From Schmidtea polychroa (Eukaryota): a stretch of 64,000 bases of DNA. Shown here one piece after another: positions 1,977 through 40,265 of the stretch. A model generated the notes under the pieces. The model saw nothing but the letters and a program-made list of their open reading frames with translations. It was not told the DNA's origin and searched no databases. Made by a program: the position numbers and the translations under genes. Each line of letters opens with the position of its first letter. The stretch's first letter is position 1. Where the stretch lies: contig CM097886.1 of assembly GCA_044892525.1 (NCBI GenBank), positions 17,608,001 through 17,672,000 on the forward strand. Direction: 5' to 3'.

Positions 1977-2101
1977 CTGATTGGACAGAAAATAATATAT
2001 AAAGAGCGACAAAAATCTGTAGAGTATCATTCTAACCCGAAACTCTACAGGTAAAAATTCATTTAAAATATTATCAATCATTCTAACCCGAAACTCTACA
2101 G
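1977..2101 (+). promoter_or_regulatory. LTR promoter: reverse CCAAT box, TATA box, Inr, short leader exon with splice donor and a 51-nt intron
   Basis: CTGATTGG 1977-1984, TATATAAAG 1996-2004, TCATTC 2027-2032, CAG|GTAAAA at 2050/2051, CTAAC...TACAG| ending 2101. The same layout is in the E2 LTR. Confidence 0.65.
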
Positions 2102-4406
2102 GACTTCAGGACCACTTAGCAGCTATTAGAACTCGTTTACGAAGCAATCCTACAAAACTACTTACAGCCGATAAGCCATTTTAGACTACTGGTTAAGAGC
2201 CTACGGAAAGTATCGAGAACTTAGACGACTTTATTATTCTATTCGATCCAGTTTTAAACTCAAAGGTATGCATTCGATTGATATTATGAATAGTTATTTG
2301 CTGTAAAAATGTTGAAAATAATGAAAAGCAGAATAAATTTTATTCAATAAATTTAATTTGAAATGAACAGCAGCCTTTTTCTTCATGGTACCGGCCACTG
2401 CACTATCTGGGACCTTCAAGCATGATGCGGCAGAGCGAAAATGCGTTGCGAAAGGGTTTGCGAGTATGCATTGCGACGAAGGGACGATATCAGTCGATTT
2501 TCGAAGTTGAAGAAGAATTGAGGAAATTGTCCAGTACGAAGGGACATGCATCTGAATGGCTCGGAAGACATCATGCTTGGAACCCAGCTGGTGGGGTCGC
2601 CGGGTAAATCTGATTTATTCATTTTATGTGTTTTACAAAATTTTTCCATTAATGTCGGAGTTGATTTTGGAATTGCTTGAATAGAGGAGTTGATCGTCTC
2701 CCATGACGGTGCAAGGACGGCGGCAGAAATGAGTGCCGTTCTTGGGTGGGTCATGAGAGGTGAGGAAACTCCGTGAGTCGAAGTATAGCTGAAGAGTGAA
2801 ATTTCCTTCATCGAGTGCGATCGACCACCGCTATCGTCGAAAATACACTTCTTAAAAGAGTAGTCGCGAAGATGAAATCATGAGAAACTCCAGGAGATCG
2901 TCGAATCAAAATCTTTTCACATTACATCCAGTCGCCGTTAATCGCATTGGAAAGTTAGAGTCCATGTCGTATATCCCTCGGGAAATTGGCACGAGAATAT
3001 CTGGTGATTGGGGATCTATAGCTGCGTAAAAAATCCAATGTTGTTCACAGAGAATGTCATAGAGCCCGAGATCTTCTAGAATACACATCGCCAGGACATT
3101 TACGACGAAACCCATAGTCAGTGTACTTTTGAGTTAGATTGTTGGTTATGAGGCCACTGATAAGCCTAGATTTTCTGAGAATAAAACAAACAAATCACGA
3201 GAAATTATCGGAATATTTACGATCGGCGTTAGAGAAACCGCAGTCGAATTTATCAGAAACTGTCAAACTAATTTCAGACAGATTATTATTCACCGGATTG
3301 TATGACTGAGGAAAACCTGACGAAGAGCGAGAGCGATAATCGTCTCTGCAATAGGTTTAGTGAATGCGTTGATAGAGAGATGTCTAAGAGTTGATAACGA
3401 CTAGAGTAAATCATCAGTTCTGACCCGCTAGTGAATTGTCGCGTAATGATTGGGTGGATACTTCTAACCAATCTCCCAGACAACTGAATCTTGATAATCC
3501 GTCTCATTTACACACTATCGGGAAATTCTTTCTCAGTAGACGGCAATTTATTCTAAATCTTAAATGGTTATGTGACACAATCGTGACGTAACAACGAGGG
3601 AGTTAATCGAGAAAATACTACTGTGTGCACAGGCGAAAGAAAGAGTTCACGCGCGTAAAGGCAGACACCCACTCTTAAACTACCATTCGAAGCAAACACG
3701 TCACCAAAACTGATTCACATGCTAGGGACAAATAACAACACTTTAGTATGCATTGTCATATATTGAATTATGTGCCGCCTTTAAACGAAAGACGATATTT
3801 TAATACAACCACATATTACGCAACGTCGTCATGACAACCTCACGGCGAAAATTTAAATAAAACTAAAAATCATAAGTTAAGTCAATAGGGAACCAAAGAT
3901 ATTCTGCTGTTAATTTTTTCCCTTTTTCCTATTTTATTTTATCTATTTGAACTACTTTAATATAACATAACGAGGTCTATTGAATATCGAATTTTTCTTT
4001 TATAATACTACTCGGTTTAGTTGTGTAGAACGTAGTAATGAGGAGTAAAATCGCAAACATCAGATAATGATAAGTAGAATAAAAGGGTTAGTCTTGTTAG
4101 TACTAGACTGAACAAGCATGAAAAGGGGAATAGTCAAACTCATAACACGTACCGATTGTAAAATGATGACAAATAAATTATGTCTAGAATTTTCGTTTTC
4201 TTCTCGTCAGGTGTTGATGGTTGAGGGGATGAATTTGAATGTTTAAAACTGGATGAATGTGGGTGCCGACTGATAATTTGGGCGTTTGAATCACCACTGA
4301 ATGGTTTGATTTCGAAAAAAGGGAACCTCATATGTAAAAATAGGAATAAAATCCTAGCCAATAAATTTTGTAAAATTAACAATGAAAGATTCTATAAACT
4401 CTTTAG

Positions 4407-5168
4407 ATGAATACCTCTACCAGCTCTGGAAAAAATCTTCGCCCGTGTCTCTTCTGCGCCGATAAAAACGCAGATATCGCGCAGCTCCACTTATACATCG
4501 GGGCACTGAAAAAGAGAATTGATCTCTACGAAGGCACGTGGTTCTCCCCGCCACAAATGCAAGAGGAACGCAAGAAAATTCTCCGATTAGAGCATTGCAG
4601 GGACAGCCTGCTAGAGGAAAGCCGTTGCCAGCGGCTCACTATCAAAGCACAATCGGAAGCCCTCCATAAGGTATATACGGAGGCAGAATTGGCCAAACGG
4701 GTCCGAGAATTTCCCGTCATCGAGAAGACCAATGTCTTCCCACCTCACCATCAGGCCTCCCAATCAACTTCAACAAGCTGCCAAAGGCATGGTACCTATC
4801 TGCCGCCCGTCCCGGCTCCAACCTTATCGAGTTATCAACCCTTGGTCGGTGGACCTACCGATCCCATCTTGGCTCCAATCTTGGTGGCACCAATCGGCAC
4901 CGCGAACGTGGAAAACCCTCCGTCTACTCGCAAACGGAAACGGCCAACTCGAGCCGAGAAGAATAAAAAACGCCGAGATGCGATGGCCGCACTCGAAGCG
5001 TCGCTATCGGTAGCCCAATCCACCATAAAGGAAATCTCTTCCAGCCATTCAATTCCAACGAAGGAAATTTTCCGTGTAATTCCCGCAGAGGGCATCAAAT
5101 ACGTCTCTAACCAACAATTGCCGGTCGACATCGACGAGATGCTTGCCGATGGGGAGTCCTTTGACTGA
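4407..5168 (+). CDS. LTR-encoded 253-aa protein (CxxC, coiled coil, Arg/Lys-rich motif, acidic tail), 5' LTR copy
   Basis: Intact ORF, homologous to the 250-aa E2 LTR ORF (LRPC..C.DKNA, EGTWFSP, EHCRD.L..ESR.QR..I..QSEALHKVY); preceded by TTTAG|ATG. Confidence 0.8.
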   Translation: MNTSTSSGKNLRPCLFCADKNADIAQLHLYIGALKKRIDLYEGTWFSPPQMQEERKKILRLEHCRDSLLEESRCQRLTIKAQSEALHKVYTEAELAKRVREFPVIEKTNVFPPHHQASQSTSTSCQRHGTYLPPVPAPTLSSYQPLVGGPTDPILAPILVAPIGTANVENPPSTRKRKRPTRAEKNKKRRDAMAALEASLSVAQSTIKEISSSHSIPTKEIFRVIPAEGIKYVSNQQLPVDIDEMLADGESFD

Positions 5169-5700
5169 CAGATTTCCATTGCCTTGATTCGGCAAGATTC
5201 GGAAGCGGACTTGAGTGTTTGTGAATATTGAACATTTATTTTTGTGACAGCCCCTTTTCCTTGTTATAAATGTAATTATTGTTGTGGATGTAATATAATT
5301 TTTATTGTCTCTCGGTGATTGTTTTTGGCATGCATGATATGGGATTAAAAGTGAACAATAGGACGATATCAGATATAGGTAGCACTACAGAGTCGTCCCC
5401 TTGGACCAGGGAAGGACCGAATGATGTGTAGAGGAACGGGTAAGACCTTCTACGGCGCCATGGAACCCGAACCGAGACAGGGTTAGGAGTAGTCTTAAGG
5501 CAGAGGCTCACCTGCTAACCTTTTCCGACCCGTGTGAGCAGCACCAACGTGGAACATCACCACGGGCTCATACGTGGGAATATGCATTCGATCATCTGGT
5601 GTATGTATGGGAAGTGCCTGAGCGGAACGATGACGCCTTGTATGAGTGAAGGTTGCGCGTGCATAATTTTTCTCTTCCCCACATACGCCAACATGATTTT

Positions 5701-7667: not shown

Positions 7668-9054
7668 GTAAAGGCCTAAAGTAATAGTGAGATAGCATTT
7701 AAGCTACAATTTGATGACATCTAAATTACTAGTGAGATAGAATATTAAAGCTAGCTAGGAACGAATTGAATTTAAATATGGAAATTTGAATTTAGGGAAG
7801 ATTAAACGAGCTCGTGGAAAGTGATAATAAAACCCCGTTAGTGAGGGAGAAACGGAAAAAGGAAAATGAATCAGGAGATAATAGAAACAAAGAATAAGTA
7901 TGAATAGATGATGAACAAAAGAGGAAATAATTAATTAATTAAAAGGGATCCCAGATAAGTAGACAAAGTTCTACAGAATTTTTTTTGGTTTAAACCGGTT
8001 AAACGAATTTTGTTTTTGGTTCCAGAGTAGAACCGAGTAAAAGGAAACAGAGACGAAAGAGTAAATAAAATAGCGGAACCGCGTAAAAGGATTAAGGAAA
8101 ATATGGGGGGTAATAAGCAGTAACTGACAACGACCTATCGATATTATAAATGCTAACTATAGATAATTTATACGACTATATAGATAATTGTTACTACCCC
8201 AAATAGATAATTTAAAATCGACGAAAAATATGGGTTGATGGGTAATTACACTCCACGAAGAAGTGTATGAGGGGAAATGAAGAGAAGTATAACAGAGGCC
8301 CAAAAACGGTGTCTGTGCTTGAATATGGTAAAAAGGAATGATTGATTCGTGTAAGCAAATGCAACACGATATCATTTTTTCATTGTAGATATCCATCCAA
8401 CCAAGTCAATTCAGAACCAGCTCAAAAGGAATCTAGAGAATATACAAACAACCCAGGAAAAGCAATTCAGAACCCGCACAAAGGAAAAAACAAATCAATC
8501 CAAATACGGAGGACGACAACGACATCTTTATCTACGACGGAATTATCGAAATACTTAGCATCGACGTACTAGCAGAAGTCAATCAAGGACTCAGATATCT
8601 CCTCCGGAAATCAGCCGAGAAATTACGCAGAATATTCCTCGAAGAAAACACTATCAGAACCGAACTCGACCAATTCAGCAGCCGCTAACCGTAGAAAAAC
8701 CCACGTGGAAAGACAGAAAAGAGTAAAAAGAAAATCACGGATAAACCCAACCTTAGATCTTCAAGTAAGCCAGGAGACGTATTATTTTCAAGAGACGAAT
8801 TAGATCAACTCAAAAGAGGACGATCATTTAGGCAGCAGAGAGGAATATCACAAGGAGCAAAAAGACCCCACAAAACACCGATATACGATCAAGAAAACCC
8901 CACAGCCAGACATACGCCCAGTCGATCTAGAAGTAGAGAAAGCCTATCCGATATAACAAACAACCTAACCGGGTCAACAGAAGAATTATCCGTCTATAAT
9001 TTAGCGACATCGCTGGAAAATTTAAAAGAAACAATAGAGTTACAAGAACCAGTC

Positions 9055-12000
9055 ATGATGAATGTGGTAAAAACCGACGAGTATAAAGAAAAATTTAGAG
9101 GCGAACCGTTTAACGGGAATGCGAACAAGTTGGCAACGTTCATAACCAACTTTGAAGTCTATATCGATGTGTGTGGATGGACGTCCGAAGCAATTAGCAA
9201 ACGGATGCCGTTGTTTTTATGTGATAGCGCATTAGAAGTGTACTTAGAAGCTAAAGAAAGAAATACGAAGTTAGACAATTGGGAAAGCATCAAAACATTT
9301 TTGAGGAAAACCTTCGGAGCCAGCAAACCAATAAATCAAGCCCTAGGAGAATTAGCGAGTAGAAAACAAAGAGCAAATGAATCCATAACGTTATATGCGA
9401 GTGAATTGCGAAGATTGGCAAAGAAGGCCATGAACGGAAACTTGCCGGAGGAAAATCTAATTGGTTACTTCATAGAAGGACTGCGCCGAGAAGAGGTAAG
9501 GGCCTCGGTGGGATGTCAAATGTGTAAAACACTAGAAGAAGCCATAGATTTGGCCACAAGATGCGAACTACACCTCCCAGCACAAATGAATGTCATGCAA
9601 GAGGAGGGAAGAATCGCAACAGCAACGGTGAAAACGGAAAATGGAGATAACAACAATCATGAACCCAAGATGAATCAGTTTATACCAGGAGCACATCAAA
9701 TCTTCAAACCACCACAAGGACGATCAAACGGGAATAACAGTGAACGCAACAACTCGAACAATGGGAACAACTTTAATAATCGACGAAATATGAACGATAA
9801 CAAACAATGCCGAACATGCGGTAAACCAGGACATTGGGATAGAGATTGTTACCGAAACGCAAATTGCAATAGGTGTGGACGACGAGGACACACGGAAAAT
9901 ATATGCCAATTGAGAGGATGTTTTAACTGCGGTCAACCAGGTCATATCTCAAGAGACTGTCGAGAAAGGAGCCAACAACAACGACCACCACAGCGAAATA
10001 ATAACTATGCACCGAATCCGCAACGACAAAGTAATCCTAGTGAGGGAAAGCAAATGAATGTGATGCAAGAAATTTCACAAATGAAGCAGATGATGCAACA
10101 AATGATGAGACCGAGACAAGAGCAAGTACCACAACAAACCCAGAATATACGCATGATGAGGAGCACCGAGAATCTTAACAATTATGAAGTGCAACAACAT
10201 GCACAAGAATGGCAAAGACTACAAGCTGAAGAAGAGAGGATAAAAAGAGAGCGAATTCAGCAGCGACAAGAACAACCATTACGAATAAATATGATGAGAA
10301 TGGTAAGGGAGATAAAAGAGCAATATTGTTACAATTACGGTAAAAATCCAAGAGTTGTACCTATGAGCGAACCAGAGAAACCGAAAGAAACAATTACAGC
10401 AGCAAAAAAGGAAAATTCAACAACACCGCTAAAAGGAAATCAGAGAATTCAGAAAATATTTTGGAAAAAGATAAAAGATAAAATCGAAAGAGAAAATGAG
10501 AAAACAAAAACAGAAGCAGAAGCAGAAAATAACGAAAATGAAAAACAGATTAATCATCTAAATCATGATATGATACGAGAATTAGACTCAGAGGAGCTAA
10601 CGATACTCGAGAACAAAAAGTTAAAGAAAGTACCAAGAATGAGAAATTTACGAATTAATATGATGAGGACAACAAAGAAGGTGTTGTCAACAGATGACGA
10701 TGAGGATTATGTGAGTAGCCTTGGTGGAGAAATGTTACAGTTAAATGAAAATATCGACCAACTAAGAGAAAAGATCGGAGCAGATGAGGATGAAAGTGAA
10801 AGCGACGTGACAAGCGAAAGCGAAGACGGGAATATCGAAACGAAATTGAGAAAAGAAAGAGAAGAAGCGATAAAACAAGTAAAGGAAATACTTCCAGTGG
10901 TGGTAAGAAACCAGGAATTCATTGACATCATACCATACAGACGCTTCATACAAAAGATAATGAAACTAGAAAGAAACGAAAAAGATCTAATACCAAACGA
11001 GGAAAAAGCGATAATAAAGAAGTATATGGAAAAAATGAAACAAGCGGAGACAACACGCTATGTAATAAAAATCGGAACGAGTAAAGGACTCGAGAGAATA
11101 TGGATAAAAAATGCAGTTACAGACGATCTTTTCGATTGGATAAGAGAACATTTGGGCAGCTCGAGAAAGAAAGAATACCTGTATCAATATCAAGGAGAAC
11201 AAATCAAACCAGACATGCACCTAATAGATGCATTGATCTGGCCAGGAGAAACTCAAATATTGAAATTGCATAAAGAGAAGCAACCAGCAAATATTCACGA
11301 ATGGGCTAAAGACGCCAAGGCCGAGTATGACTTTAACATCAAGCTGAAGCTGGAACAAATAAAACAATGCACCTTGCGACGAAATCTAGATAAATTAATC
11401 AAACAAATCCAAGAACAAGTTGAAGATAACTGGGATTTGCTCATAACAAGACGAACTGCGGACATGCATGAACTAATGAGCCGACTGCGAGATACAGAAC
11501 TGCTCCGAATGAGTGATTGGAGAACCATAAATTTGATCCACAAATATGGAAGGTTGAAAGAAACGCAACCGCAGAAATTAGAAATAACCATATGGTTACC
11601 AAACGAGGAGAAACGACGAATAAAGATGAGTAATCAGAGTACGGTGGATGACTTAGTAACCAAGATAAACCAAGAGATAACGGAAAAAGTACGAAGCGAG
11701 AGTAGCGACGGGATGATAGATGATGTAGTCCTGATGTACGATAAAATAATATTTCGGGCCGAAGATGACACCTCGCTAAGCGAAATGGGAATGTGGGATA
11801 ATCATCAAATCATCAGAATATTGCCCATGGACGAATTCCGAACAAGAGATGTAACATACCAGAAAGAGATACGGGACAGGATGAAAACGCTATACCAAAA
11901 ATCAGTGGAGATAATTGAAATTCATCAACAATGGCTAAAGGAAAAAGAGCTTCAAGGGAAAATAAAGAAACTGAGTACTAGATCCTGCAGACGAACCCCG

Positions 12001-14886
12001 TGGGAAAGGATGTGGAATGCGGAAAACAAAGAATGGGAAATCAGGAAAGGGATTTTCGTAGAAACAGACATTGGTGAGGCAGAAAGTGAATCAGAGGAAG
12101 AGGAAGATGAACCTCCAAAATACGAAGAGGACGAAATAGAATCGATATCGGACGACGAAAGCGAAACGGATGTTACGTCAGAAAGTGAAACGGAAACCAG
12201 ACATATTCATGCGATGAGAAAGAAAGAACGCGAATATGCCGATATGGACAGCGAAGAAGCGATGGAAGCTCGAGAACGAGAAGAGAAGGAAAGATATAAA
12301 CAATTAGGTGATATCTTAGCAACGGGAGCAAAAAATCAAAAACGTCAAGTAATAGCATTGGCTAACATCATCCTAAAGACATCAGAGAATATCCACAATC
12401 TAAGAGAAATGGCGAAAGCGATTGAGGAATACCGACAATATAACGAATGGTACCCAGAACAGCTAGAACAAATTATTAGGAAATGGAGAAACCAAGAATG
12501 GGCACAAGATACCCAGGAAAGGTATCGCATCCGAGTCAAGTACCCCGACAAGAGCATTGAGGATATAGAAGTACATCCAACAACCAAGATCAGAGAATTG
12601 AAAAAGAAATTAGCATACGAAACTCCATTTCACCTACAACTATTCGGAAAATCGTTGGATGATAATGCAGATGTCGGAATAACACCCATGAGATTGGGGG
12701 AGATCAATGTATTGACAATGGCAGAAACATTGGGAAAACCGATTAAAAGGAAGAGCAAATCCAGTAAACCTACGAAAGGTAGCTTGAGTACACCAAGCCC
12801 TAACAAAGTGGCGAGTAAATCGAATGAAACCGAGGAAATCGAGGAAATTATATTGGAAGACAGCGATGAAGGAGCTGGAGAAAGATCACCAATTCTGGTA
12901 AGATGGCCGACAGGAGCCGAAATGTGGACAACAAGCCAACCATCAACTAGCTATCAACAACCAAATAAGCTGAACATAGAGGAAATTGTCGATAATACGA
13001 CAGAAACCGAAATTGACGAACAATTTCAACGACAAAAAGGACCAACGAAAGCAATATCCGAAGGTCAAACGGACAAAATAATAGACGAATGGAATGAGTG
13101 GTTGAGAAACAACGATAGCTCATTGCCAAGAACAGATAACGAGAGAAACCCGAATTATGAAACGACAAGAGAAGCTGGAACAATGATGGAGAAACGGGCA
13201 AAAGGAAGACCCAAGAAGCAAGGAGAAAAACCAGAATTTAAAACCAGAGAACAACTGAAACAAGAACAAGGACAAGTCAGATTAGAGAAACTGGATAAAA
13301 TAGTGTGGGATCTAAAAGAGACCCAGCCAACAATCGAAAGAGGCGAAAAATGGATACGAGAGCTAGTAAAAGATATGCTAATAATAACGAACCCACAATT
13401 GCGACGATTATGGCAACGAAAAGTAGCAAGCGTAGATGCCAGACAGTTATGGAATACAATATCCGGAATAATTCCGAAATTAATCAAAGAGAAGACAAAA
13501 ACCACTAAAACCGATTGGGAAGAGACAAGAAGAGTAATTGAACAATTAACTTTAAACGCAAACGACGACGAACATCATTTAGTAGTATTAACGTATCTAA
13601 TGTACAATTTGATGGGATTAGCAGCAAGGAAAATACCTAACAAACAATTCGCAAATCATGTAGAAATGACCGTTACAATCATTGAAAATACAATCGAACC
13701 ACATATTATCCGCGCCGGTGGGTGGAAAAGACTCATACAAGCGCCACGAAAAAACGAGCAAGAGAGATCAATGCAAATTCGGTTGAAGAAATTGCTAAAC
13801 GAGCTGGAATGGGAATTGCCATTGAAAGACCCAGCCAGCAGAAAAGCGTCGATTAATTCACTAATGATGACCATGATGATATGGATGCTCTGCACCAGTG
13901 GAGCCGCGGGATTTACCATTTACGACTGTGACAATTCGATAATAGGAGAAAGGTACTCCCTGAGAGATATAGAGGAATGTAGACAGGCATCTCCGAATAA
14001 ATTAGATATAGTAAAAAAGAAAGTCTCCTATCACGTATACCAAGAATCAGATTTCATTAGAACGCAAGCTAGAGAATGCGTAGTATCGAAGAAAGTGTTG
14101 GCATATTACTGTGGACAATACTCATATTCAACCCTCATATTACCTGGATTAGATAAAGAAATAGTACCTATACAACGGGAAGACTGTAAAGAGCTTTTTA
14201 GAACCGGAGCGATGAGAATCAGGGATGGAGTAACAATACACGGACAAAGCGGAATGATCAAGACAGAAAGTATCTATGTCGCCGGACGAGTAAAATCAAC
14301 TGATGGATCATGTAACGGAGGCACATATACGATCAGAGGGGAGGTGATATCGGGAGTAGTAGTAATTGAGTCCTACACAGTAGAATTGAAGGAATATGAA
14401 GCACAATTCGACGCAAACAACTATCAAATGAAAACCAACCCAGCATGCAGAGCTACGGAAAACGTGTGTAGAACGGGAATTTCGACTATAATATATGAAG
14501 CTAACACCCAAAAATGCCGACTCCAATTGTTAAAAAGTGCCCTATTCAATGAAGTAAAAGGAGAAATTTACGAAAACGAAGACGACGATGAAGAGAATGG
14601 AAACGTAAGGATGCGAAATGGGAAACCAGTTCCACCATCCCCCAAAGAAAAGAGACTCACAACCCAAAAAACACCAACGGCATTAATTACAGATGATCCA
14701 GATATCGGTATGAGATTCATCAGAGAAAAAGAGACTACCAAATGTGACAGCATAGTATATCGGACGAACTACGCAGGTATCTACATGTCAAGGCAAGTAA
14801 TAGACCGAGCAGTGGGAAAGGTAGCAACAGAGGACGTAAAATTGTACCTGTACGCCAATAACAAAATGGACTTTTTATTTCATTGA
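9055..14886 (+). CDS. gag: E1 polyprotein, N-terminal part: Gag capsid, 3 CCHC knuckles, Ubl domains, Bcl-2-like domain, first half of envelope glycoprotein
   Basis: Retrotransposon capsid motifs (EPFNG..., Q...ESI..Y...LRRLA); CX2CX4HX4C x3 at 9808-9960; signal-like segment then FTIYDC at 13912. Ends at an in-frame TGA (14884-14886) where E2 has Arg. Confidence 0.92.
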   Translation: MMNVVKTDEYKEKFRGEPFNGNANKLATFITNFEVYIDVCGWTSEAISKRMPLFLCDSALEVYLEAKERNTKLDNWESIKTFLRKTFGASKPINQALGELASRKQRANESITLYASELRRLAKKAMNGNLPEENLIGYFIEGLRREEVRASVGCQMCKTLEEAIDLATRCELHLPAQMNVMQEEGRIATATVKTENGDNNNHEPKMNQFIPGAHQIFKPPQGRSNGNNSERNNSNNGNNFNNRRNMNDNKQCRTCGKPGHWDRDCYRNANCNRCGRRGHTENICQLRGCFNCGQPGHISRDCRERSQQQRPPQRNNNYAPNPQRQSNPSEGKQMNVMQEISQMKQMMQQMMRPRQEQVPQQTQNIRMMRSTENLNNYEVQQHAQEWQRLQAEEERIKRERIQQRQEQPLRINMMRMVREIKEQYCYNYGKNPRVVPMSEPEKPKETITAAKKENSTTPLKGNQRIQKIFWKKIKDKIERENEKTKTEAEAENNENEKQINHLNHDMIRELDSEELTILENKKLKKVPRMRNLRINMMRTTKKVLSTDDDEDYVSSLGGEMLQLNENIDQLREKIGADEDESESDVTSESEDGNIETKLRKEREEAIKQVKEILPVVVRNQEFIDIIPYRRFIQKIMKLERNEKDLIPNEEKAIIKKYMEKMKQAETTRYVIKIGTSKGLERIWIKNAVTDDLFDWIREHLGSSRKKEYLYQYQGEQIKPDMHLIDALIWPGETQILKLHKEKQPANIHEWAKDAKAEYDFNIKLKLEQIKQCTLRRNLDKLIKQIQEQVEDNWDLLITRRTADMHELMSRLRDTELLRMSDWRTINLIHKYGRLKETQPQKLEITIWLPNEEKRRIKMSNQSTVDDLVTKINQEITEKVRSESSDGMIDDVVLMYDKIIFRAEDDTSLSEMGMWDNHQIIRILPMDEFRTRDVTYQKEIRDRMKTLYQKSVEIIEIHQQWLKEKELQGKIKKLSTRSCRRTPWERMWNAENKEWEIRKGIFVETDIGEAESESEEEEDEPPKYEEDEIESISDDESETDVTSESETETRHIHAMRKKEREYADMDSEEAMEAREREEKERYKQLGDILATGAKNQKRQVIALANIILKTSENIHNLREMAKAIEEYRQYNEWYPEQLEQIIRKWRNQEWAQDTQERYRIRVKYPDKSIEDIEVHPTTKIRELKKKLAYETPFHLQLFGKSLDDNADVGITPMRLGEINVLTMAETLGKPIKRKSKSSKPTKGSLSTPSPNKVASKSNETEEIEEIILEDSDEGAGERSPILVRWPTGAEMWTTSQPSTSYQQPNKLNIEEIVDNTTETEIDEQFQRQKGPTKAISEGQTDKIIDEWNEWLRNNDSSLPRTDNERNPNYETTREAGTMMEKRAKGRPKKQGEKPEFKTREQLKQEQGQVRLEKLDKIVWDLKETQPTIERGEKWIRELVKDMLIITNPQLRRLWQRKVASVDARQLWNTISGIIPKLIKEKTKTTKTDWEETRRVIEQLTLNANDDEHHLVVLTYLMYNLMGLAARKIPNKQFANHVEMTVTIIENTIEPHIIRAGGWKRLIQAPRKNEQERSMQIRLKKLLNELEWELPLKDPASRKASINSLMMTMMIWMLCTSGAAGFTIYDCDNSIIGERYSLRDIEECRQASPNKLDIVKKKVSYHVYQESDFIRTQARECVVSKKVLAYYCGQYSYSTLILPGLDKEIVPIQREDCKELFRTGAMRIRDGVTIHGQSGMIKTESIYVAGRVKSTDGSCNGGTYTIRGEVISGVVVIESYTVELKEYEAQFDANNYQMKTNPACRATENVCRTGISTIIYEANTQKCRLQLLKSALFNEVKGEIYENEDDDEENGNVRMRNGKPVPPSPKEKRLTTQKTPTALITDDPDIGMRFIREKETTKCDSIVYRTNYAGIYMSRQVIDRAVGKVATEDVKLYLYANNKMDFLFH

Positions 14887-17800
14887 GGACAAACGACAAT
14901 GCAAAAAGTGTATTACGATCTTATACAAAATGACTGTTCATTGAATAAAGAGATACTAAAAACAAAATTAGCCATCGCAATAACACACCCAGATAACACA
15001 ATGCCATCACTCCCGTTACCGGATGGACATTTTGGTAGAATGGTGGGAGAGGTAATGTATACATATGCATGTACCAAGACATTTGCGCGACTGCCAAGAA
15101 AGCCCACAATTCCACCAGGGAAATGTGCAAACGAATTGGAAATTAGCTACAAAGGGCGGAACAGATTCGTTCAACCCGTCACTCGAATTATGAACCCAAT
15201 TGGATTTTATCCGAACACCTTTAATTGTTCAAATGCATACGGGCCATTATATGAAAAACCCGATGGGAAATGGATAATGTTACCGGTAAAAACCGAAGTA
15301 CAAGAGCCTAAAAAGTTTGGATTAATAGAACTCGCAACAGAGCAAGATTTCAAACCAATTGATGTGTCAAAAGCAGGTATGTACTCACCAGAGGATTTAG
15401 AAACAGCACGACTAAACGTACTATTCCCAGCAAGGCGAGAATCCATTCTATCGAATATGGTTACCATAACTGGGGGAACGAATTTCCAGTCAGGCCCCAA
15501 TTACGAACTATTATTGTCACCCGATCATTTTCAACAAGCCACGTCAAACATGATGAAAGCAATGTGGGAAAGATTTCTAGTGTTCGGTCAAATGATGGCA
15601 GGAATATTGGGAATCATCTTAATTATTCAGATTGTCAGAGTGATATTGACTCAAATGTTAGCGTGTTTTGATATCTATAAGAGAGAAAAGAAAGTAAATT
15701 GGAAGTTGATAGTAGGTTTTCTACCATTTTTGGCAAAAACAATGGTGTTGCACGGTCATTCTAAAGATATACACAGAATAAAACGATTAATCAAAATACT
15801 GACAAAAATAAAAGGGACTGACGAGGAGGTCGGTAGACGATTTCGGAAAACAATGTATGATGAAGCAACGAGAGCGCAACTAAAAAAGAACAAACCAAAA
15901 TTCCTAGACAGATTTAGAAATCGATCAAACAGCAGCGATAGTGATGATGATGATAACGGGAATGACAAATACCCGTATCCAAGCAGAAACCCGAACGAAA
16001 GGCAAATAGAAACAGCACCATTTTGGGAGAAAGAAAAAACAAATACCTGGATAGCCAACGGAAGTTATATACCACCAGATATCGTTGGACAACAAACAGC
16101 TTTGACCATGACACAAAATATGTATCCACAGTTACCAAGTCAACCAGGGATGAACTATATGCCGACCCGAAGAACGAAAAGTGTAGACCAAGCTGATGAC
16201 GTCAGAACAATAGCAGTAATGAGTTCACCAGGAGGAGCAGCAGTAACAGTCATGATCCAAATCAACGGGAAAGAGACAAGCGCAATGATAGATACCGGAG
16301 CAAATGTATCAGCAATAGCAATAAACCAAATACCCAGTAAATGTTGGAAAGACATCGAACAAACAACTATCCATATCATCGCATGCAGTAAAGAAACCGT
16401 AGACGTGGTAGGAAGATGGTGGACTACGTTACGATATCAAGATAATGAAATTGAAACGTATCTAGCGGTGATACCCAAACTGAGTGAACCATGTATAATC
16501 GGAACGGATTTAATGCCGGAATTGTTCAAGGAAGTAGTAATTGATTTAACAACAATGTGTCTAAAAGACAAAATGGGTAGAATATGCAAGATGAACGCAA
16601 TAATTAGATGCCCGGAGAAAATAATTGTACCCGCAAAATCACAGATGATATGTCAAATAAAAGTGGATGCAGGAATGGAAGGGGAAGTCATTTTTGAGCC
16701 AAGCAAATCATTCGAAAAACGACGAGAATTACCATTAGCAAGAGAAATAATAACAATAAATGAAGACGGGGAAATACCAATCAACATCACAAATTTCGAG
16801 GAAGAAGATAAAATCATATATGAAAATGAAAGATTGGGTAGATTGACACCCATGATAGACATCGAATTACCAAAAATCACCAACGAAACAACGAAAGCTG
16901 ACGAATTATGGATAATTGATAGCACCTTGCTAACGGAAAAAGAAAAGGAAAGACTTCAACAATTATTGATAGAATATAAAGATATATTCGCAATTTCGGA
17001 TTTAGATTTGGGAGCATGCGATGTTACATTACACGCAATACCATTAATAGACGAAACTCCAATCGCACTACGTCCATACAAACTAGCAGAGAAGCAAAAA
17101 GAGATAGCCGAAACAGAAGTACAAAAAATGCTAGATGCACAAGTGATCGAACCAAGTTGTTCGCCATGGCAATTTCCAGTAGTCATGGTGAAGAAAAAAG
17201 ATGGTACTCAGAGATTCTGTATCGATTATCGGAAACTAAATGCAGTAACAAAAAGAGACACATACCCGTTACCAGACATCAATGAGATGTTACTTATGTT
17301 ACAGGGGGCCGCATATTTTACGTCTTTAGATCTGAAAAGCGGATATTGGCAGATCAAAGTCAAGGAGGAAGACAAAGAGAAAACAGCATTCACATTGGGC
17401 CGAGATCTATACCAATTCAGGAAAATGCCATTTGGACTGACCAATGCCCCAGCATCATTTCAGAGATGTATGAATTTCGTCACGCACGGGATCAAGCAGT
17501 GTATGGTATATATTGATGATTTATTAATATATTCAGCAACATTCGAACAACATTTGGAAGACATTAGAAACGTGTTCATCCGATTACGACAATGGAAATT
17601 GAAACTCAAACCATCAAAGTGTGATTGGGCAAAAGAGAAAGTTACGTTCTTAGGACACATAGTGTCAGCAAAAGGCAAAGAACCAGACCCAAGAAACATA
17701 GAAAAAATAAAAACATGTCCAGCACCAAAAACTGTCACCCAAGTCCAAGAATTTCTCGGATTATGCGGATATTATCGAAAATTCATCAAAAACTATGCAG

Positions 17801-20800
17801 GTATTGCGAAACCAATACAGGAATTAGTGAAAAAGGATATTTCATTTATTTGGGGTGCAGAACAACAAAAAGCATTTGAGACATTGCGAGATAAATTAAT
17901 TGAAGCCCCAATACTAGTACATCCTGATTTCAAGAAACCGTTCTTATTAGCAACAGATGCAAGTGGATATGCAGCCGGAGCAATATTAGGACAACTGGAT
18001 GAAGAAGGAAAAGAAAGAGTGATTGGATACTACAGCAGAACGTTTAAAAAGCACGAGAAAAACTATTCCGTAACCGAGAGAGAAGCGTTAGCAATTATAC
18101 AAGCGATTAAACATTTTCGATATTTGTTATGGGGACACGAAATATGTATCACAACGGATCATCAACCACTAGTATGGCTTGGTCAACACAAAGAAGCTTC
18201 AAGTAGATTGATGCGATGGGCAATGCAGTTACAAGAATATTCACCGTTCATAAAATTCAAAGCGGGAAGAGCGAATGCCAATGCGGATTGTATGTCCAGA
18301 TTTATCTTTCCAGATTTAGTAGATCACGAAATGCAACGAATATGTCTGATGGTAGCAGAAGATTTAGATTTTTGCCAATTACGGAAAGACCAACAAGAGG
18401 ATACAGAGTTGAAGCAAATCATTGAGTATGTGAAAACAGGGAAAGCAGAGGTATATGAGAAAGATCAAAAATTGAAGGAGCATATGGATAAACATCGACA
18501 TCGATATATTATCGAGAAAGACTGGTTGTTGATAATGGATGGAGAAAAAAGACTGATGTGCATTCCCGAGAATAGACGTAAAGAGCTGCTAACACAATAC
18601 CATGACGGAAGACTCGGAGTACATATGTCATCTAAAAAGACGTTGGCACGAATGAAACAAAAGTATTTTTGGCCTACATTGACCGAGGATGTAACAGAAT
18701 GGGTAAAGAACTGTATAACTTGCGCGACCAGAAAAAACACGGGAACGAAATGGAAGGCACCATTAAAGCCAATGCCAGTACCAGCGGAACCAATGACAAT
18801 GCTATCAATGGACGTAGTCGGTCCACTACCAGAATCAGATAGAGGAAATATATATATATTGGTAATCACAGATTATTTGACAAAATTCCCCGAAGCATTC
18901 GCAATGGCAGATCAGAAAGCAAGAACAATCGCGAAAATACTAGTAGAGGAGATATGCTGTCGATATGGAACACCAAAACAGATATTAACTGATCAAGGAA
19001 CAAATTTCATGAGCGAAATAATGAGCGAAGTCACCAACTACTTCAAGATCGCAAAATTAAGAACATCACCGTACCATCCACAAACAAATGGTATGACAGA
19101 AAGATTCAACGGAACCTTGATCCAGATGTTATCAAATTATGTCGATCGTCATCAACGAGACTGGGATGAATATATAAAATTATGCCTAATGGCTTACAGA
19201 ATGTCGATTCACGCGTCCACAAAGATGAGTCCGTTCAAGTTGATGTACGGCAGAGAATGCAATATGCCAATGGATTTGGAGTATCAGCCACCAATATCAC
19301 AGTATATGGAAATAGATGATTATGTAACCAAGTTCAAGGAAAGAATGCAGGAAATCTGGGAAACTGCAGGATTGAATATAAAATTTTATCAAGAAAGTTA
19401 CAAAGATCTACATGATAGAAAGAAAAACGTCAAACAGCATACGTTTCAAACAGGCGACTGGGTGATGATCGAAACACCAGAATTAATTCCAGGAACCACC
19501 AAAAAATTACAACGAAACGGTAAAGGTCCGTATGAGATTCTATTCATCGGAGAAACCAATGTGAGAGTACGATTGGTAAACAACCCCTTCACGAGGCCAA
19601 TATATGTAAATGTGGCACGATGCAAGCCAATTCCGAAAACCGCCACCAGTCAGCCAGAAGGACGAACATTAACAACAAGATCACAAACGTATAGAATAAA
19701 TATGTTACAACAGATAAACGAACCAACAGGTAACCGATTGGGGTTACAACCATCAGAAGCAGAGAAAATCATAAAGGAAGTGAAAGCTAAAATGCCCGGA
19801 TGGGCAGAAGACAGATTAGATTTTGAGATATTGGGAGGTCTGCTAACAATGATCGAAAATTATGCAAACCGAGAAAGAACACACCCATTACTCAGGGTAG
19901 TAAAAAGTCAATGGCCTATATTATTTACGATCACAGACCATTATGGAGATACACCGCTGCACAAACTTTTAAAGGTCGGGAATAATGAACAAATACTGGA
20001 AACGATCGAAGCATTTCGCGACTGTAACATTTCGACGGATCAAGAAAACAACCAAGGTTACACTCCACTAATGATAGCAGCCAATCGGGATAAAGCTAAA
20101 GATATTATCATCGCATTACTTGAAACTGGGTCAAAGATAACCACACAAGACCACAACCAGAAAAATGCACTACATCATGCAATCGAAGGGAAAAGTACGG
20201 AAGCCTTCATAATCTTAGTAGATCTATTATCATATGAGGATCATAGGGAGATAGGAAACATGTATGACGGGCTATTAACTGCAATCAAAGAGAAATTAAT
20301 AACAATTGCTGGATTACTAATTGCATGGAGGAACCCGATCAAAAACGATTATATGGTAGATATAAACGAAACATTTACCAAAGGAGAAAACACCTTGATG
20401 AGAGAAGCGATGAGAGGACATCACCTATTCGAAATTCCAAATCAACTACTACAACGTGGCATAAAGTTTTCAAATCACAAAGACGAACAACTAATCAGAA
20501 AACGAATTACCAAATTCGAAAAAGCTATATCTCAATTTACCGATAAAGTACAAGTAAAATTTTGGGAAACCGTGAGTGTATTATATATGATGGAAACTAT
20601 GAACAACATTCGAGAAAACTACCTAAGTATTATTCAAGTGCTTACGGCGGAAGAACGCATTAACAGTTCAAACAAGAAAAAGATAAAAATAAAGAAAGTA
20701 AAAACAAGAGAGTCTGAGGAACAAGTCGATCAAATAATAACCGATATAGCAACAACAAGTAAACCAAAGATAATAAACTCAGACCAGGAGATAATAATAC

Positions 20801-22929
20801 GCAAAGCCAAAGAGGTGTTCTTTGAAGAAATGCGAGATTTATCTGACGAAGCAATACTATCAAAAATAACAAAAACAGTACACACCTACGCAAGAGACCA
20901 GACCACAAATCTAGACATAGAAAAAATAAAAACATTTATACCACTAGCATTCACCTTACCAACAAAAGACTCAAGAACACCATTACAACAAGCCATTTTA
21001 GCAGCAAAAGAAAACAGAGCAATAACCATCATAAGAATCCTTAGAGACTTCGGAGAAGAATCTAATGCAAAAAATGAACAAGGAGAAACAGCAATGATGT
21101 ATGCAGCCATAACAAATATACACCCGAAAACATTACATATACTACATCGATCGGGATCAAGACTGGACGAAATATCAAACGAAGGAAATTCTACCATGGA
21201 TTGGGCAACAATACAACCAAACTTGGAAATGATTAGATTCATTTGTAAAAATGCTACAAGAACTGAGGTAGAAAATATCTGTAAAAACACGTCACAGTTC
21301 CAATGGAACACGATACGGATGAACTTAGAAGCCATGAAGTTATTGCTAACATGGAAAATACCGCAAAGCAATAAATATGCAATAAATATAAATGAGTTCT
21401 ACGAAAACGGAGAAAATGCTATGGTTAAAAATACACTAACAAAAGGAGGAACTCCGAAAATCATAATGATCGTATTGAACAGAGAAGACCTCAAATTCAC
21501 GCAAAATCTAAACGAACAAAAGCGAATCGGAAAACATCGCCGTATACAATTGAGAGAACTGGTAAAAGAATGGAATAGAAAGAGACATGTAGCAACAGGC
21601 AGAAAAGAGTTTGAATTCGAAGCAAAATTAGCAAGAAATAGAGTGCTAACGGCATACCGCAGATTGTTGAATGATATAAATGTCGAGGACGACATTTTAA
21701 ACGATAGCGGGGGAGATAAAGACGATAAAGACGACGATAATAATGAAAAAGGTCGAAACGGGAATAAAGAGAAAGAGAAATCAGAGGAGAATAATCAAGA
21801 AAATAACGACGCGAGTAGGAAAAAAGAGGAAAATAACCCGGGAAACCGAATGAAGCAAGAAGAAAAGACGAATAGTGGAAAACAGAGGGTATGTCTACTT
21901 TTTACCAACAAAGAAATGGAGACAAATATGATGATAATGATACTCGTATTAACAATGGTGGAAATGATAACAGCCCAGGGAGGAATGAGAACGATAAAAG
22001 AAGCCAAAGAAACGGAAAATAAGGATAACAAAGAGGAAGAACTAAAACAAGAAAAGAAAAAACAAGTACAAGAGCAGCAATGGGATCTAAAAGAAGAATG
22101 GGATTTAAAAGAAAGGTGTATATTAGGAAGATGTATGTCTAGAGCTTATCAGAGACTAGTGTTAAAAAATGAAGATGCAGAACCAATAACGGAAGTGGGA
22201 ATACAAGAAGCGTACCAACATCGAAACGGGAAGAAGATAACAAAAGTCAAATGGAAAGAGGTACACCTGAGTAAAGGAGGGGAAATAGTGATAACACAGC
22301 TTCAACCAAGAAAAGAGCACAAAGTGTGTATTTCAAGGCTAGGCCCAGGAGAAAATTGCCTACAATATGTAACGCAACAACAACCACCAAAGGAATATAC
22401 GGTATGTATCCTGAGAAACGGTCCAGAAAGAGAATGTCGACGATACCCTGGGAAAAGAGGGAGGAAAAGAAAAATCAATGATGAAAAAGATGAGCAAGGA
22501 AAACGCAAGAAAAACAGTGAGAAACATCAAGACAATTATGTATCCGAGGAGGAGATGGAGAAAATACAAAAAATGGCAAAGGAAGGTATGAACGAGGAAA
22601 TAGCAAGAATACGAGGAATGATGAAAGGAAATGGCAAAGACGGTAATCTAAAAAGCACAGAAGCAATATCAACAATAACGAACAAGGAGAAAGCGGAAAT
22701 TATCAGCGTAAAACAGATGATGTGGATCAGCGGCATAATAATAACAGGGGCCTTTTTAATCATAACGGGGGGGACAATAAAAATAATCAAAGATAGACGG
22801 CATCGCGGAGAACTAGAAATGGCCAGAATAAGAAATTTTCAACATCGTGTAAAACGACCAAGTAATATCAAGCAGGAACAGTGGGTGGAGGCCTGGAATG
22901 CTCAGCGCCCTCCAAGCTCACGTATATAG
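14887..22929 (+). CDS. pol: E1 polyprotein, C-terminal part (same frame after the TGA; ORF-track ATG 14899): glycoprotein C-half and TM, PR, RT, RNase H, IN, ankyrin repeats, membrane tail
   Basis: IDTGA (16288), YIDD (17509-17520), LATDAS/TEREAL/TDHQPL, HHCC zinc finger and D-D-E integrase (SMDVVG, LTDQG, TERFN), GPY, and TPLH/TPLM ankyrin repeats. Confidence 0.95.
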   Translation, partial: GQTTMQKVYYDLIQNDCSLNKEILKTKLAIAITHPDNTMPSLPLPDGHFGRMVGEVMYTYACTKTFARLPRKPTIPPGKCANELEISYKGRNRFVQPVTRIMNPIGFYPNTFNCSNAYGPLYEKPDGKWIMLPVKTEVQEPKKFGLIELATEQDFKPIDVSKAGMYSPEDLETARLNVLFPARRESILSNMVTITGGTNFQSGPNYELLLSPDHFQQATSNMMKAMWERFLVFGQMMAGILGIILIIQIVRVILTQMLACFDIYKREKKVNWKLIVGFLPFLAKTMVLHGHSKDIHRIKRLIKILTKIKGTDEEVGRRFRKTMYDEATRAQLKKNKPKFLDRFRNRSNSSDSDDDDNGNDKYPYPSRNPNERQIETAPFWEKEKTNTWIANGSYIPPDIVGQQTALTMTQNMYPQLPSQPGMNYMPTRRTKSVDQADDVRTIAVMSSPGGAAVTVMIQINGKETSAMIDTGANVSAIAINQIPSKCWKDIEQTTIHIIACSKETVDVVGRWWTTLRYQDNEIETYLAVIPKLSEPCIIGTDLMPELFKEVVIDLTTMCLKDKMGRICKMNAIIRCPEKIIVPAKSQMICQIKVDAGMEGEVIFEPSKSFEKRRELPLAREIITINEDGEIPINITNFEEEDKIIYENERLGRLTPMIDIELPKITNETTKADELWIIDSTLLTEKEKERLQQLLIEYKDIFAISDLDLGACDVTLHAIPLIDETPIALRPYKLAEKQKEIAETEVQKMLDAQVIEPSCSPWQFPVVMVKKKDGTQRFCIDYRKLNAVTKRDTYPLPDINEMLLMLQGAAYFTSLDLKSGYWQIKVKEEDKEKTAFTLGRDLYQFRKMPFGLTNAPASFQRCMNFVTHGIKQCMVYIDDLLIYSATFEQHLEDIRNVFIRLRQWKLKLKPSKCDWAKEKVTFLGHIVSAKGKEPDPRNIEKIKTCPAPKTVTQVQEFLGLCGYYRKFIKNYAGIAKPIQELVKKDISFIWGAEQQKAFETLRDKLIEAPILVHPDFKKPFLLATDASGYAAGAILGQLDEEGKERVIGYYSRTFKKHEKNYSVTEREALAIIQAIKHFRYLLWGHEICITTDHQPLVWLGQHKEASSRLMRWAMQLQEYSPFIKFKAGRANANADCMSRFIFPDLVDHEMQRICLMVAEDLDFCQLRKDQQEDTELKQIIEYVKTGKAEVYEKDQKLKEHMDKHRHRYIIEKDWLLIMDGEKRLMCIPENRRKELLTQYHDGRLGVHMSSKKTLARMKQKYFWPTLTEDVTEWVKNCITCATRKNTGTKWKAPLKPMPVPAEPMTMLSMDVVGPLPESDRGNIYILVITDYLTKFPEAFAMADQKARTIAKILVEEICCRYGTPKQILTDQGTNFMSEIMSEVTNYFKIAKLRTSPYHPQTNGMTERFNGTLIQMLSNYVDRHQRDWDEYIKLCLMAYRMSIHASTKMSPFKLMYGRECNMPMDLEYQPPISQYMEIDDYVTKFKERMQEIWETAGLNIKFYQESYKDLHDRKKNVKQHTFQTGDWVMIETPELIPGTTKKLQRNGKGPYEILFIGETNVRVRLVNNPFTRPIYVNVARCKPIPKTATSQPEGRTLTTRSQTYRINMLQQINEPTGNRLGLQPSEAEKIIKEVKAKMPGWAEDRLDFEILGGLLTMIENYANRERTHPLLRVVKSQWPILFTITDHYGDTPLHKLLKVGNNEQILETIEAFRDCNISTDQENNQGYTPLMIAANRDKAKDIIIALLETGSKITTQDHNQKNALHHAIEGKSTEAFIILVDLLSYEDHREIGNMYDGLLTAIKEKLITIAGLLIAWRNPIKNDYMVDINETFTKGENTLMREAMRGHHLFEIPNQLLQRGIKFSNHKDEQLIRKRITKFEKAISQFTDKVQVKFWETVSVLYMMETMNNIRENYLSIIQVLTAEERINSSNKKKIKIKKVKTRESEEQVDQIITDIATTSKPKIINSDQEIIIRKAKEVFFEEMRDLSDEAILSKITKTVHTYARDQTTNLDIEKIKTFIPLAFTLPTKDSRTPLQQAILAAKENRAITIIRILRDFGEESNAKNEQGETAMMYAAITNIHPKTLHILHRSGSRLDEISNEGNSTMDWATIQPNLEMIRFICKNATRTEVENICKNTSQFQWNTIRMNLEAMKLLLTWKIPQSNKYAININEFYENGENAMVKNTLTKGGTPKIIMIVLNREDLKFTQNLNEQKRIGKHRRIQLRELVKEWNRKRHVATGRKEFEFEAKLARNRVLTAYRRLLNDINVEDDILNDSGGDKDDKDDDNNEKGRNGNKEKEKSEENNQENNDASRKKEENNPGNRMKQEEKTNSGKQRVCLLFTNKEMETNMMIMILVLTMVEMITAQGGMRTIKEAKETENKDNKEEELKQEKKKQVQEQQWDLKEEWDLKERCILGRCMSRAYQRLVLKNEDAEPITEVGIQEAYQHRNGKKITKVKWKEVHLSKGGEIVITQLQPRKEHKVCISRLGPGENCLQYVTQQQPPKEYTVCILRNGPERECRRYPGKRGRKRKINDEKDEQGKRKKNSEKHQDNYVSEEEMEKIQKMAKEGMNEEIARIRGMMKGNGKDGNLKSTEAISTITNKEKAEIISVKQMMWISGIIITGAFLIITGGTIKIIKDRRHRGELEMARIRNFQHRVKRPSNIKQEQWVEAWNAQRPPSSRI

Positions 22930-23457: not shown

Positions 23458-23546
23458 ATATAACCTAAAATAGCAATGTAAATAACTGTAAATAAAAATA
23501 CGAAACTGTACCAGTAACGAATATATGTATATATATAATTATAGAA

Positions 23547-24935
23547 ATGGATAAGCGACAACGAGAAGAATTCAAAGAAATTGTTGAACAAGTCAGAAAG
23601 TCCACCACAATTCGAATACACAACCATGTAACGTGTGGAATATGCAAGAGCTTATTAAGAGAACCTCACCAAACCAGATGTGGATGCAGAATGTGCAGAG
23701 AATGTGTAGAGGAGATAATAAAGAAGGGACCACAATGGTGCCCAGTATGCAAAGAAACAATGATAACAAGTCTGGGAGATACAAACGAAGATAAAGCAGC
23801 TGTAAAAGATATGTTGAATGCAAACCTAGGATGTAAAAACACCCCATGTAATTGGCGAGGAGTGATATGGGAAGTGAGGCAACATATGGAGCAATGTGAA
23901 TATAAAATCAGTCAATGCAAACGTTGCCAAGAAGAGATTAAAGTCAATGAAGAAGCAGAACATCAAAGTCGATGCGAAGAAAGACTGGAGAAATGTGAGT
24001 ATTGCGGAGAAACCGACACCTGGAAAAAACTAATCAGTCAACATCACAACATACAAGAGGAGAAAGTGTGCGCAGAATTCAGAGGAGAATGCCCCAACAA
24101 ATGCGATAAACCCGGAGTAATAAAACTCGCTCAACATCTAAAAGAATGTGAAAGAAAAAAGATAACGTGTGTGCTAGGAAAATGGGGATGTCAGAAACAA
24201 TTACACCGAGGGGAATTACCCCAACATCTAGCAGAAAACGTATCAACACACGCGGAAATATGGTCAACGGTATTACAAGAAAACGAAAGGAAAACCGAAG
24301 ACTTAGAAAGAGAAATAGTCTCGCTAAAAGCGTTGGTAAAAGAACTATTGGAAGAAAAGGAAGCATTTGAAGAGGCAAGAACAAGTACAAAGATACAGAC
24401 AGATCTAGTAGAAACTAGCAACATTATGGTGAAAGAACTACATCAAAAAGTAAGCGAATTAAACCTCAACGAATTAATACCCACGGCTCCATACATATGG
24501 AAAATAACGGGAGTAAAAGAGAAGATGCAGAGAGCGAGAAATGGAAAGGATACAACATTACTAAGTCCAGCATTCTACTCATGGAAAAACGGGTATAAAA
24601 TGAAAATGAAAGCATACCCCAATGGGGATGGAAGTGCATACGGAACGCATTTCTCAGTATTCTTCTTGATGTGCAAAGGGCTATACGACGAGTTAATAGA
24701 ATGGCCATTCAAAGCAAAAATAGACCTCGCAATGATGAACTATCAAAGTATACATGAACAGAGTTTCCATACAGCGGGAAACCTCGTATGTTACCAAAGG
24801 CCCTTGGAAGAAGAAGGACCAGCAACTGGAGCACCGAATTTCATCCTACAGCGGAAAGTAGAAGACATGACGAGAAACGACACCATATACATAAAAATAG
24901 TGGTGAGGCGAGACGGGAAGAGTAGGACTGAGTAG
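23547..24935 (+). CDS. TRAF-like protein (RING, TRAF zinc fingers, coiled coil, MATH domain), 462 aa
   Basis: N-terminal RING CGIC...EP.QT.CGC..C..C...CPVC; repeated CxxC..H..C fingers; MATH motifs YIWKITG, SPAFYS..NGYKM, YPNGDG..GTH.S.F, EWPF. Confidence 0.92.
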   Translation: MDKRQREEFKEIVEQVRKSTTIRIHNHVTCGICKSLLREPHQTRCGCRMCRECVEEIIKKGPQWCPVCKETMITSLGDTNEDKAAVKDMLNANLGCKNTPCNWRGVIWEVRQHMEQCEYKISQCKRCQEEIKVNEEAEHQSRCEERLEKCEYCGETDTWKKLISQHHNIQEEKVCAEFRGECPNKCDKPGVIKLAQHLKECERKKITCVLGKWGCQKQLHRGELPQHLAENVSTHAEIWSTVLQENERKTEDLEREIVSLKALVKELLEEKEAFEEARTSTKIQTDLVETSNIMVKELHQKVSELNLNELIPTAPYIWKITGVKEKMQRARNGKDTTLLSPAFYSWKNGYKMKMKAYPNGDGSAYGTHFSVFFLMCKGLYDELIEWPFKAKIDLAMMNYQSIHEQSFHTAGNLVCYQRPLEEEGPATGAPNFILQRKVEDMTRNDTIYIKIVVRRDGKSRTE

Positions 24936-35178: not shown

Positions 35179-35712
35179 TGTTGGGGTTACACCTCGGCTG
35201 ACCGCTCTACCATATTGACGGGTCTAAGGGTTGATTGTCCATCTCGAATAAAAGGTGCCACCGATTTGTCAACCTGGAGTGAAACCCCACATAACTTTCT
35301 TCCAACATAGTGCCCGTGAATCACTTCACGTTGGTACTGCACTATGCAGGCGAGACACCAGCAAGCAGGTGAGCTTCTGCCTTAAAACTACTCCTTGCTG
35401 AGGCCTCGACTTCCCATTCACGACTGCCGATAGAAGGGCTTACGTCCATTTCCTTACACAACCACTTATCAGGATTCGCTGAACGCAAATTGGGAATTTC
35501 TCACTAGATCCTGCGGGTTCTCTACTCAACCCACTTAATTAAAGTCTAATTATTCATGAACGAAAACGTGTAAGACAACAAGATTTATTAATTTCAACGT
35601 TATGACACAAGGATTCAGCTGTACACTTTACTAATGTTTGTCGAAAGAAGAGAAAACATCATAATCAACATAGATCGGGTCCTTGTTCTTCATCCTGACC
35701 GCCACTGGGGTT

Positions 35713-40210: not shown

Positions 40211-40265
40211 GATACTATTATACATTCATTATGTTTATTTACAATTGGTTTTAATGACCCTTAAT

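Follow-up and report, generated by a model that had tools for sequence, protein, structure and literature searches.

We analysed a 64-kb window of the Schmidtea polychroa genome (the whole stretch of 64,000 nucleotides, on contig CM097886.1) that contains two giant long terminal repeat (LTR) elements, E1 and E2, in opposite orientation. We conclude with high confidence that the E1 polyprotein includes a divergent, non-canonical Bcl-2-fold domain, fixed between Gag and Env. An initial annotation had pointed to a helical segment at 13291-13745, ending in IIENTIEPHIIRAGGWKRLIQ and conserved in E2; this segment indeed lies in frame within the plus-strand frame 8695-14886, and its E2 counterpart is 93% identical at the protein level. 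The features of this region are as follows.

13273..13320, plus strand: extra helix ahead of the Bcl-2 fold (predicted local distance difference test, pLDDT, below 50; fold matches begin at model residue 13-19)
13333..13749, plus strand: Bcl-2-like domain, from profile, shuffle control, fold search and the ratio of nonsynonymous to synonymous substitution rates (dN/dS)
13552..13590, plus strand: BH1 position, NWGR replaced by DDEH, with the register taken from profile-to-PDB alignments
13696..13743, plus strand: BH2-like motif (…IxxxGGW…), with I, GGW and the next L invariant in 14 of 14 alignment rows
13840..13911, plus strand: predicted env internal signal peptide, with a basic start, an uncharged core and small residues before FTIYDC; cleavage site placed by eye
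53539..54042, minus strand: Bcl-2-like segment of E2, from protein comparison with E1

The fold proper begins near 13320-13333, downstream of the low-confidence helix, which is itself preceded by a basic, RGRP-like patch (13195-13218). BH2 is present, with H in place of the usual W before the isoleucine in the window's own family (family A). The genome holds at least 150 near-identical matches to the segment, all 93-100% identical (150 of 901 candidates were scored). Of the scored copies, about 66, counted by hand, lie in open frames of at least 4,700 amino acids, and in 5 of the 150 a stop falls inside the domain.

The kinship with Bcl-2 was assessed across four element families of this genome. 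Family B came from a search with the Pfam Bcl-2 model (20 regions examined; scores were obtained for 150 of 909 candidates), which also recovered host exons, and families C and D were found through an env search that is independent of Bcl-2 (68 of 2,580 candidates scored, 12 regions examined). All four are built alike: a helical domain ends in IxxxGGW, a linker then leads to a hydrophobic stretch, and [AIV]YDC lies at the env start. The Pfam Bcl-2 E-values were 1.5e-06 and 9e-07 for B, 0.0018 and 0.0095 for C, and 7.8e-06 for D, the last over Pfam positions 1-100 in a family found via env alone. Against Pfam Bcl-2, all 14 rows of the four-family alignment score E<=1, the best of them 4e-07. 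The curated PF00452 cut-off of 31.4 bits was not reached by the window (15.9 bits) or by the sister families (16.9-29.8 bits), and is exceeded by a few family B copies. A profile built from A and B gave 59 PDB matches at E<=10, 56 of them to the Bcl-2 family (best E=0.057). With all four families in the profile, Bcl-xL was matched at E=9e-04, through a gapless 70-column alignment from helix 4 to BH2, and all of the best 60 of 128 matches were Bcl-xL or Bcl-2. A profile of six host Bcl-2 exons gave the E1 domain 13.1 bits, a score reached by none of 200 shuffles, and each of the six retroelement domains outscored all of its own 200 shuffles. Using hhalign, the probability for A versus B alone was weak (5%), and for A versus B, C and D together it was 92%. 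In a tree, the six retroelement rows form one group at 90/96, where long branches meet; this grouping appears compatible with a single capture, short of proof. The Bcl-2 donor cannot be named, the profile scores tending to favour host exon L044.

Searches started from the single sequence found no match among 1.84 billion representatives in a search for relatives, and no homologue among 79 and 2,476 candidates in two further searches; in another, one of 789 candidates, P0002, was recovered. The Atlas gave no match at 0.9, and none of 169 metagenome and 297 viral contig stretches matched.

The structure was predicted with AlphaFold from the 14-row alignment of the four families, which includes no cellular Bcl-2 rows. 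The resulting model consists of eight helices, and both this model and one made from the single sequence are all-helical. In a fold search against 48,161 chains, the top 10 were Bcl-2 family proteins (Z 7.8-9.2, root-mean-square deviation 3.2-3.9, 119-128 residues aligned), led by apoptosis-type cellular and viral Bcl-2s. Bcl-2 proteins account for 20 of the best 50 rows, at 7-14% identity, and the unrelated rows align over 66-111 residues. The Foldseek comparison proposed in the initial annotation gave Bcl-2 proteins in 39 of the 39 rows listed for the PDB, and the model superposes on Bcl-2 proteins over the whole domain; among viral models the best row was the adintovirus Bcl2 (E=0.27). The annotation's assignment of a Bcl-2 fold is thus supported, and on wider grounds than BH2, given the gapless match from helix 4 to BH2 and the fold match over 119-128 residues.

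The domain is also under strong constraint. Between E1 and E2 its dN/dS is 0.023, with both halves alike, compared with 0.020 for the capsid, 0.025 for the protease, 0.044-0.046 for env, 0.011 for the reverse transcriptase (RT) and 0.048-0.105 for linkers; these ratios are rough, because dS is near saturation, which counts against the functional reading proposed below. Identity to the distant relatives P0002 and P0004, both of which end or break inside the domain, is 57 of 90 positions for the domain, 99-100 of 171 for the capsid and about 30% for linkers. By contrast, none of the 70 positions of the second ubiquitin-like stretch is aligned in P0004. Judged by these comparisons, the domain is conserved as strongly as the capsid and is not a relic.

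The hydrophobic stretch downstream of the domain bears on its possible membrane attachment. The fusion-protein profile PF24664 begins on this stretch, with profile position 3 at residue 1722 in E1 and position 4 as the first in family B. The distance from the BH2 tryptophan to the start of the uncharged stretch varies, being 40 residues in A (about 40 in E1), 48-50 in B, 20 in C and 32 in D, and that from the stretch to YDC is near-fixed across families. Because of this near-fixed distance, and because the PF24664 match starts there, the stretch is the env signal peptide by descent, and was probably not inherited as a Bcl-2 tail. A C-terminal tail anchor of the domain's own is absent, as the frame continues into env. 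The 19-residue hydropathy of the stretch is 1.40 in E1, 1.27-1.40 in family A and about 2.0-2.4 in families B-D, and three small multi-copy Bcl-2-like genes of the genome have tails with values of 1.0-1.2; since its hydropathy is at least that of these tails, the stretch could hold a membrane. The annotation had proposed that a Bcl-2 anchor doubles as the env signal. The env signal is borne out by the PF24664 homology, the Bcl-2-derived anchor is not, and the tether after cleavage is putative.

In a single Gag-Env-Pol chain, the piece upstream of the signal stays cytosolic and keeps the signal after the signal peptidase cut, unless it is cut elsewhere. An I/M-x-x-M motif that marks the protease and integrase borders occurs at 9 sites (shuffle mean 1.5; 9 reached by none of 1000 shuffles) and recurs in P0004 at 6 of 6 N-terminal sites, with none between residue 1175 and the protease. 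We infer that a product of about 565 residues, or a longer Gag precursor, would end in the Bcl-2 domain plus signal on the endoplasmic reticulum (ER).

In the reading we favour, to which as a whole we assign a probability of about 0.5, the domain would descend from a Bcl-2 gene that a Burro-type, env-carrying Ty3/gypsy lineage of planarians captured long ago and has kept, in frame, between its Gag and Env. The env internal signal would thread the single polyprotein into the ER, where signal peptidase would free the Env ectodomain; the part upstream, with the Bcl-2 domain at its end, would stay cytosolic, held by the cut signal. The tethered domain would then dampen host-cell death signalling, via pro-death or autophagy BH3 proteins in a non-canonical groove, and cells expressing the element would survive. 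PMC13465017 carries a second-hand report that stem cells are guarded against apoptosis by the inhibitor-of-apoptosis (IAP) region of Burro1. Planarian genomes are full of Burro elements, one of which is thus reported, at second hand, to protect stem cells by a captured IAP. A BIR (B-IAP) region like that of Burro1 gave no match at E<=0.1 here among the 16 scanned proteins, from open reading frames (ORFs) of at least 150 residues. Because there is no such IAP match, and because the Bcl-2 fold is kept as tightly as the capsid, the domain is a candidate for a second means of averting cell death, or for a fold put to new use.

Several observations weigh against this reading. The window segment alone matches Pfam Bcl-2 at E=0.02-0.033, below the cut-off, and finds no Bcl-2 match among PDB sequences at E<=10. 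Family B rows had been selected with the Pfam Bcl-2 model, and when they are left out of the alignment the profile match to the PDB is only E=0.044, mostly through BH2. Foldseek gave no row at E<=0.001, either in the PDB or among viral models; model confidence is moderate (pLDDT 58.6, predicted template modelling score 0.46); Z-scores of 8-9 can be reached by helical bundles through arrangement alone; and the single-sequence model (pLDDT 56) gave just generic helical matches. The I/M-x-x-M pattern was defined post hoc, after inspection. A tether at the ER differs from the mitochondrial site at which Bak and Bax act. In BH1, NWGR is indeed missing, as the initial annotation had noted, and its site reads by register DDEH (A), NRDK (B), DRDV (C) and DKEV (D), so that the position of its glycine holds an acidic residue in all four families. 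The Gly and Arg of NWGR are called important for family interactions in PMC9027176, which also reports BH3 binding for a parapox protein with SPGR; in Bcl-xL, the G138A substitution is described as impairing Bax binding and keeping BAD binding (bioRxiv 10.64898/2026.06.23.733989). Canonical BH3 binding by the domain therefore seems doubtful, because NWGR is replaced in four of four families, while the SPGR protein and G138A retain some binding. A complex prediction of the domain with a host Bak/Bax-like BH3 exon, run without a supplied alignment, scored 0.00 and speaks neither for nor against binding. The description of the segment as a viral-type Bcl-2 is thus apt as a likeness; an anti-apoptotic function is putative, with BH1 lost in all four families.

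This loss of BH1 is also what gives weight to an alternative we consider unlikely, namely that the same captured fold has turned into a signalling blocker, as in poxvirus A52/B14, acting against host defence together with the TRAF-like ORF, the ankyrins and the ubiquitin-like stretches. The TRAF-like ORF and the ankyrins do lie within the same element, and A52/B14-type proteins provide a precedent (PMC2494871). However, BH2 and the spacing of helices 4-8 track cellular Bcl-2 without gaps, and no A52/B14-type protein is named among the best 50 fold rows, in which apoptosis-type proteins come first; that absence is weak evidence. Comparably improbable, in our view, is a structural role in which the Bcl-2 fold is a cytosolic, signal-anchored Env leader that links Gag to the ER membrane during particle assembly. 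The Env leader of foamy viruses offers a comparison for such a role. The place of the domain directly before the env signal is fixed in four of four families, the domain is conserved like the capsid whereas the adjacent second ubiquitin-like stretch is missing in P0004, and one Gag-Env-Pol frame forces such a topology; yet the signal would tether an uncut Gag precursor even without the domain, and BH2 has been retained.

In a further reading, BH3 binding would have been given up and the fold would now be an ER-anchored Env leader, with Gag-Bcl2 on the env signal and Pol on the env tail, organising either particle assembly or a blockade of defence signalling. We hold this to be a minority possibility; if true, a death-regulator fold would serve assembly or defence blockade throughout an entire clade of giant, endogenous retrovirus-like elements. 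Least probable is that a helical bundle carrying a GGW motif resembles Bcl-2 by chance, or that the domain is a dead relic kept merely for the open frame. The window sequence alone does fall below every threshold and model confidence is moderate, but the profile, the shuffle control, the four families and the fold search agree independently, and amino-acid conservation is far above that of the linkers in the same frame.

The arrangement found here has known relatives. As described in PMC6431247, the Burro elements of planarians exceed 30 kb, with a 4,873-residue ORF1 quoted for Burro1 (citing Grohme 2018 and Jurka 2007); Burro-2, -3 and -4 are said to contain a BCL2-like motif, a ubiquitin-like domain precedes BCL-2, and env homology lies between BCL2 and the protease. 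The same source lists BCL2, BIR and MATH cargo in Burro, and calls the roles of these domains worth testing. The layout of ubiquitin-like, BCL2, env and protease is therefore already published for Burro elements. Like Burro/GYPSM1, the window element exceeds 30 kb and has long LTRs and the order RT, RNase H, integrase; also shared are a single ORF of about 4,700-4,800 residues, a three-CCHC Gag, ubiquitin-like and BCL2-like parts, an in-frame env before the protease, ankyrins and MATH/TRAF cargo. Unlike in Burro, TRAF/MATH is here a separate ORF downstream of the polyprotein; it is described as lying inside the polyprotein in S. mediterranea and upstream in D. tigrina (PMC6431247). By the published description, the window element is Burro-type.

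Six S. mediterranea elements of this kind are listed in PMC13524379. By eye, its rows 1, 2 and 3 match the env sequences of D, C and B in that order, that of C nearly letter for letter, and row 5 looks closest to the window env, with about half of some 60 residues identical. Its main text contains neither 'Bcl' nor 'Burro', and the domain is untreated there. Burro is mentioned without Bcl-2 in passages of PMC8532177 and PMC11410931. In the literature searched, no paper put the Bcl-2 domain of a Burro element to the test, and Grohme 2018, Lee 2026 or supplements may say more. The domain had previously been noted as a motif; new here are the support for its fold, its occurrence across four families, the common loss of BH1 and the tethering argument. 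Fold, helix 4-8 spacing and BH2 are those of cellular Bcl-2 proteins (Bcl-xL, Bak and those of Hydra, sponge, Trichoplax and schistosome) and of viral ones (KsBcl-2, A179L, adintovirus Bcl2). The domain differs from these in its low identity (7-14% in fold matches), in lacking NWGR, in being part of a polyprotein, and in taking its anchor from the env signal and not from a C-terminal tail.

Other Bcl-2-like genes occur in the genome. Small Bcl-2-like genes that stand alone and have a hydrophobic tail make up at least two dispersed multi-copy families (L048-L053, L055-L062). One of these seems to hold a short intron, and the ORFs around two of the hits matched nothing but BED and DDE transposase. 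A host-type Bcl-2 exon in which NWGR is intact occurs in seven near-identical copies (L033-L039; contig C4, 89.9-90.8 Mb), clustered on one chromosome arm, and L115:8523-8976 holds two exons from a host gene that is Bak/Bax-like and includes a BH3-like stretch.

E1 is a 30.8-kb Ty3/gypsy element on the plus strand (1489-32251), with a 4-bp target duplication at both ends. Its remaining features, and E2, are these.

1489..5693, plus strand: 5' LTR of E1, about 4.2 kb, TG...CA, 99.93% identical to the 3' LTR
28047..32251, plus strand: 3' LTR of E1, from comparison of the LTR pair
8695..14886, plus strand: first part of the E1 polyprotein frame, 2,063 residues stop to stop, with an in-frame stop (14884-14886) inside env
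13912..14886, plus strand: N-terminal half of E1 env, a class III-type (Monjiviricetes-like) fusion glycoprotein (PF24664, E=8e-26)
14887..22929, plus strand: E1 frame beyond the stop, with the env remainder and its membrane span, protease, RT, RNase H, integrase and ankyrin repeats
23496..24935, plus strand: accessory ORF, RING plus MATH (TRAF-like), from a Pfam-type profile match
35179..64000, minus strand: E2, a sister subfamily with about 79-82% DNA identity to E1

The first part of the E1 frame encodes, in order, the Gag capsid, CCHC knuckles, two ubiquitin-like stretches, the Bcl-2-like domain, the signal and the first half of env. The second ubiquitin-like stretch matches ubiquitin at E=0.0023, and the first gives only a faint PI3K_rbd match (E=0.0068). 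E1 and E2 are alike in having a single frame with a retrotrans_gag Gag, CCHC, ubiquitin-like parts, the Bcl-2-like segment, a Monjiviricetes-type fusion glycoprotein, protease, RT, RNase H, integrase and ankyrins. The E2 frame is broken near 45820, and its 5' LTR extends about 1.6 kb past the window end. Both insertions appear recent, because the LTR pairs are 99.93% (E1) and 99.98% (E2) alike. With env in frame, protease, RT and integrase would be made as a cytosolic tail of the Env membrane span, with one Pol per Gag and Env, a stoichiometry and topology unusual for a gypsy element.

Each element carries four accessory ORFs (23496-27792 and 39569-43818), namely the TRAF-like RING-MATH ORF, the only one with a clear Pfam family, two that are coiled-coil-like, and one that is hydrophobic in stretches close to either end. 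Every LTR holds a 253-residue ORF (4407-5168 and 30965-31726 in E1, plus strand; 35713-36474 and 61948-62709 in E2, minus strand); the N-termini of the E1 and E2 versions are related by eye, and the E1 ORF has no Pfam match. The 5' leaders contain 73-74-bp tandem repeats (7304-7744 in E1, 59479-60050 in E2). A tract a few bases past the 5' LTR (5694-5725), common to both elements, resembles a tRNA-Pro primer site. The 64-kb window contains no tRNA genes. Of three sequencing runs, whose RNA nature is only guessed, one covers the domain and two leave it uncovered. An apparent 23788-to-27224 joint in one run was rejected as a splice junction, since splice ends are absent at both places, and looks like a deletion variant. 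A fragment of a DDE_1 (pogo-like) transposase lies at 66-680.

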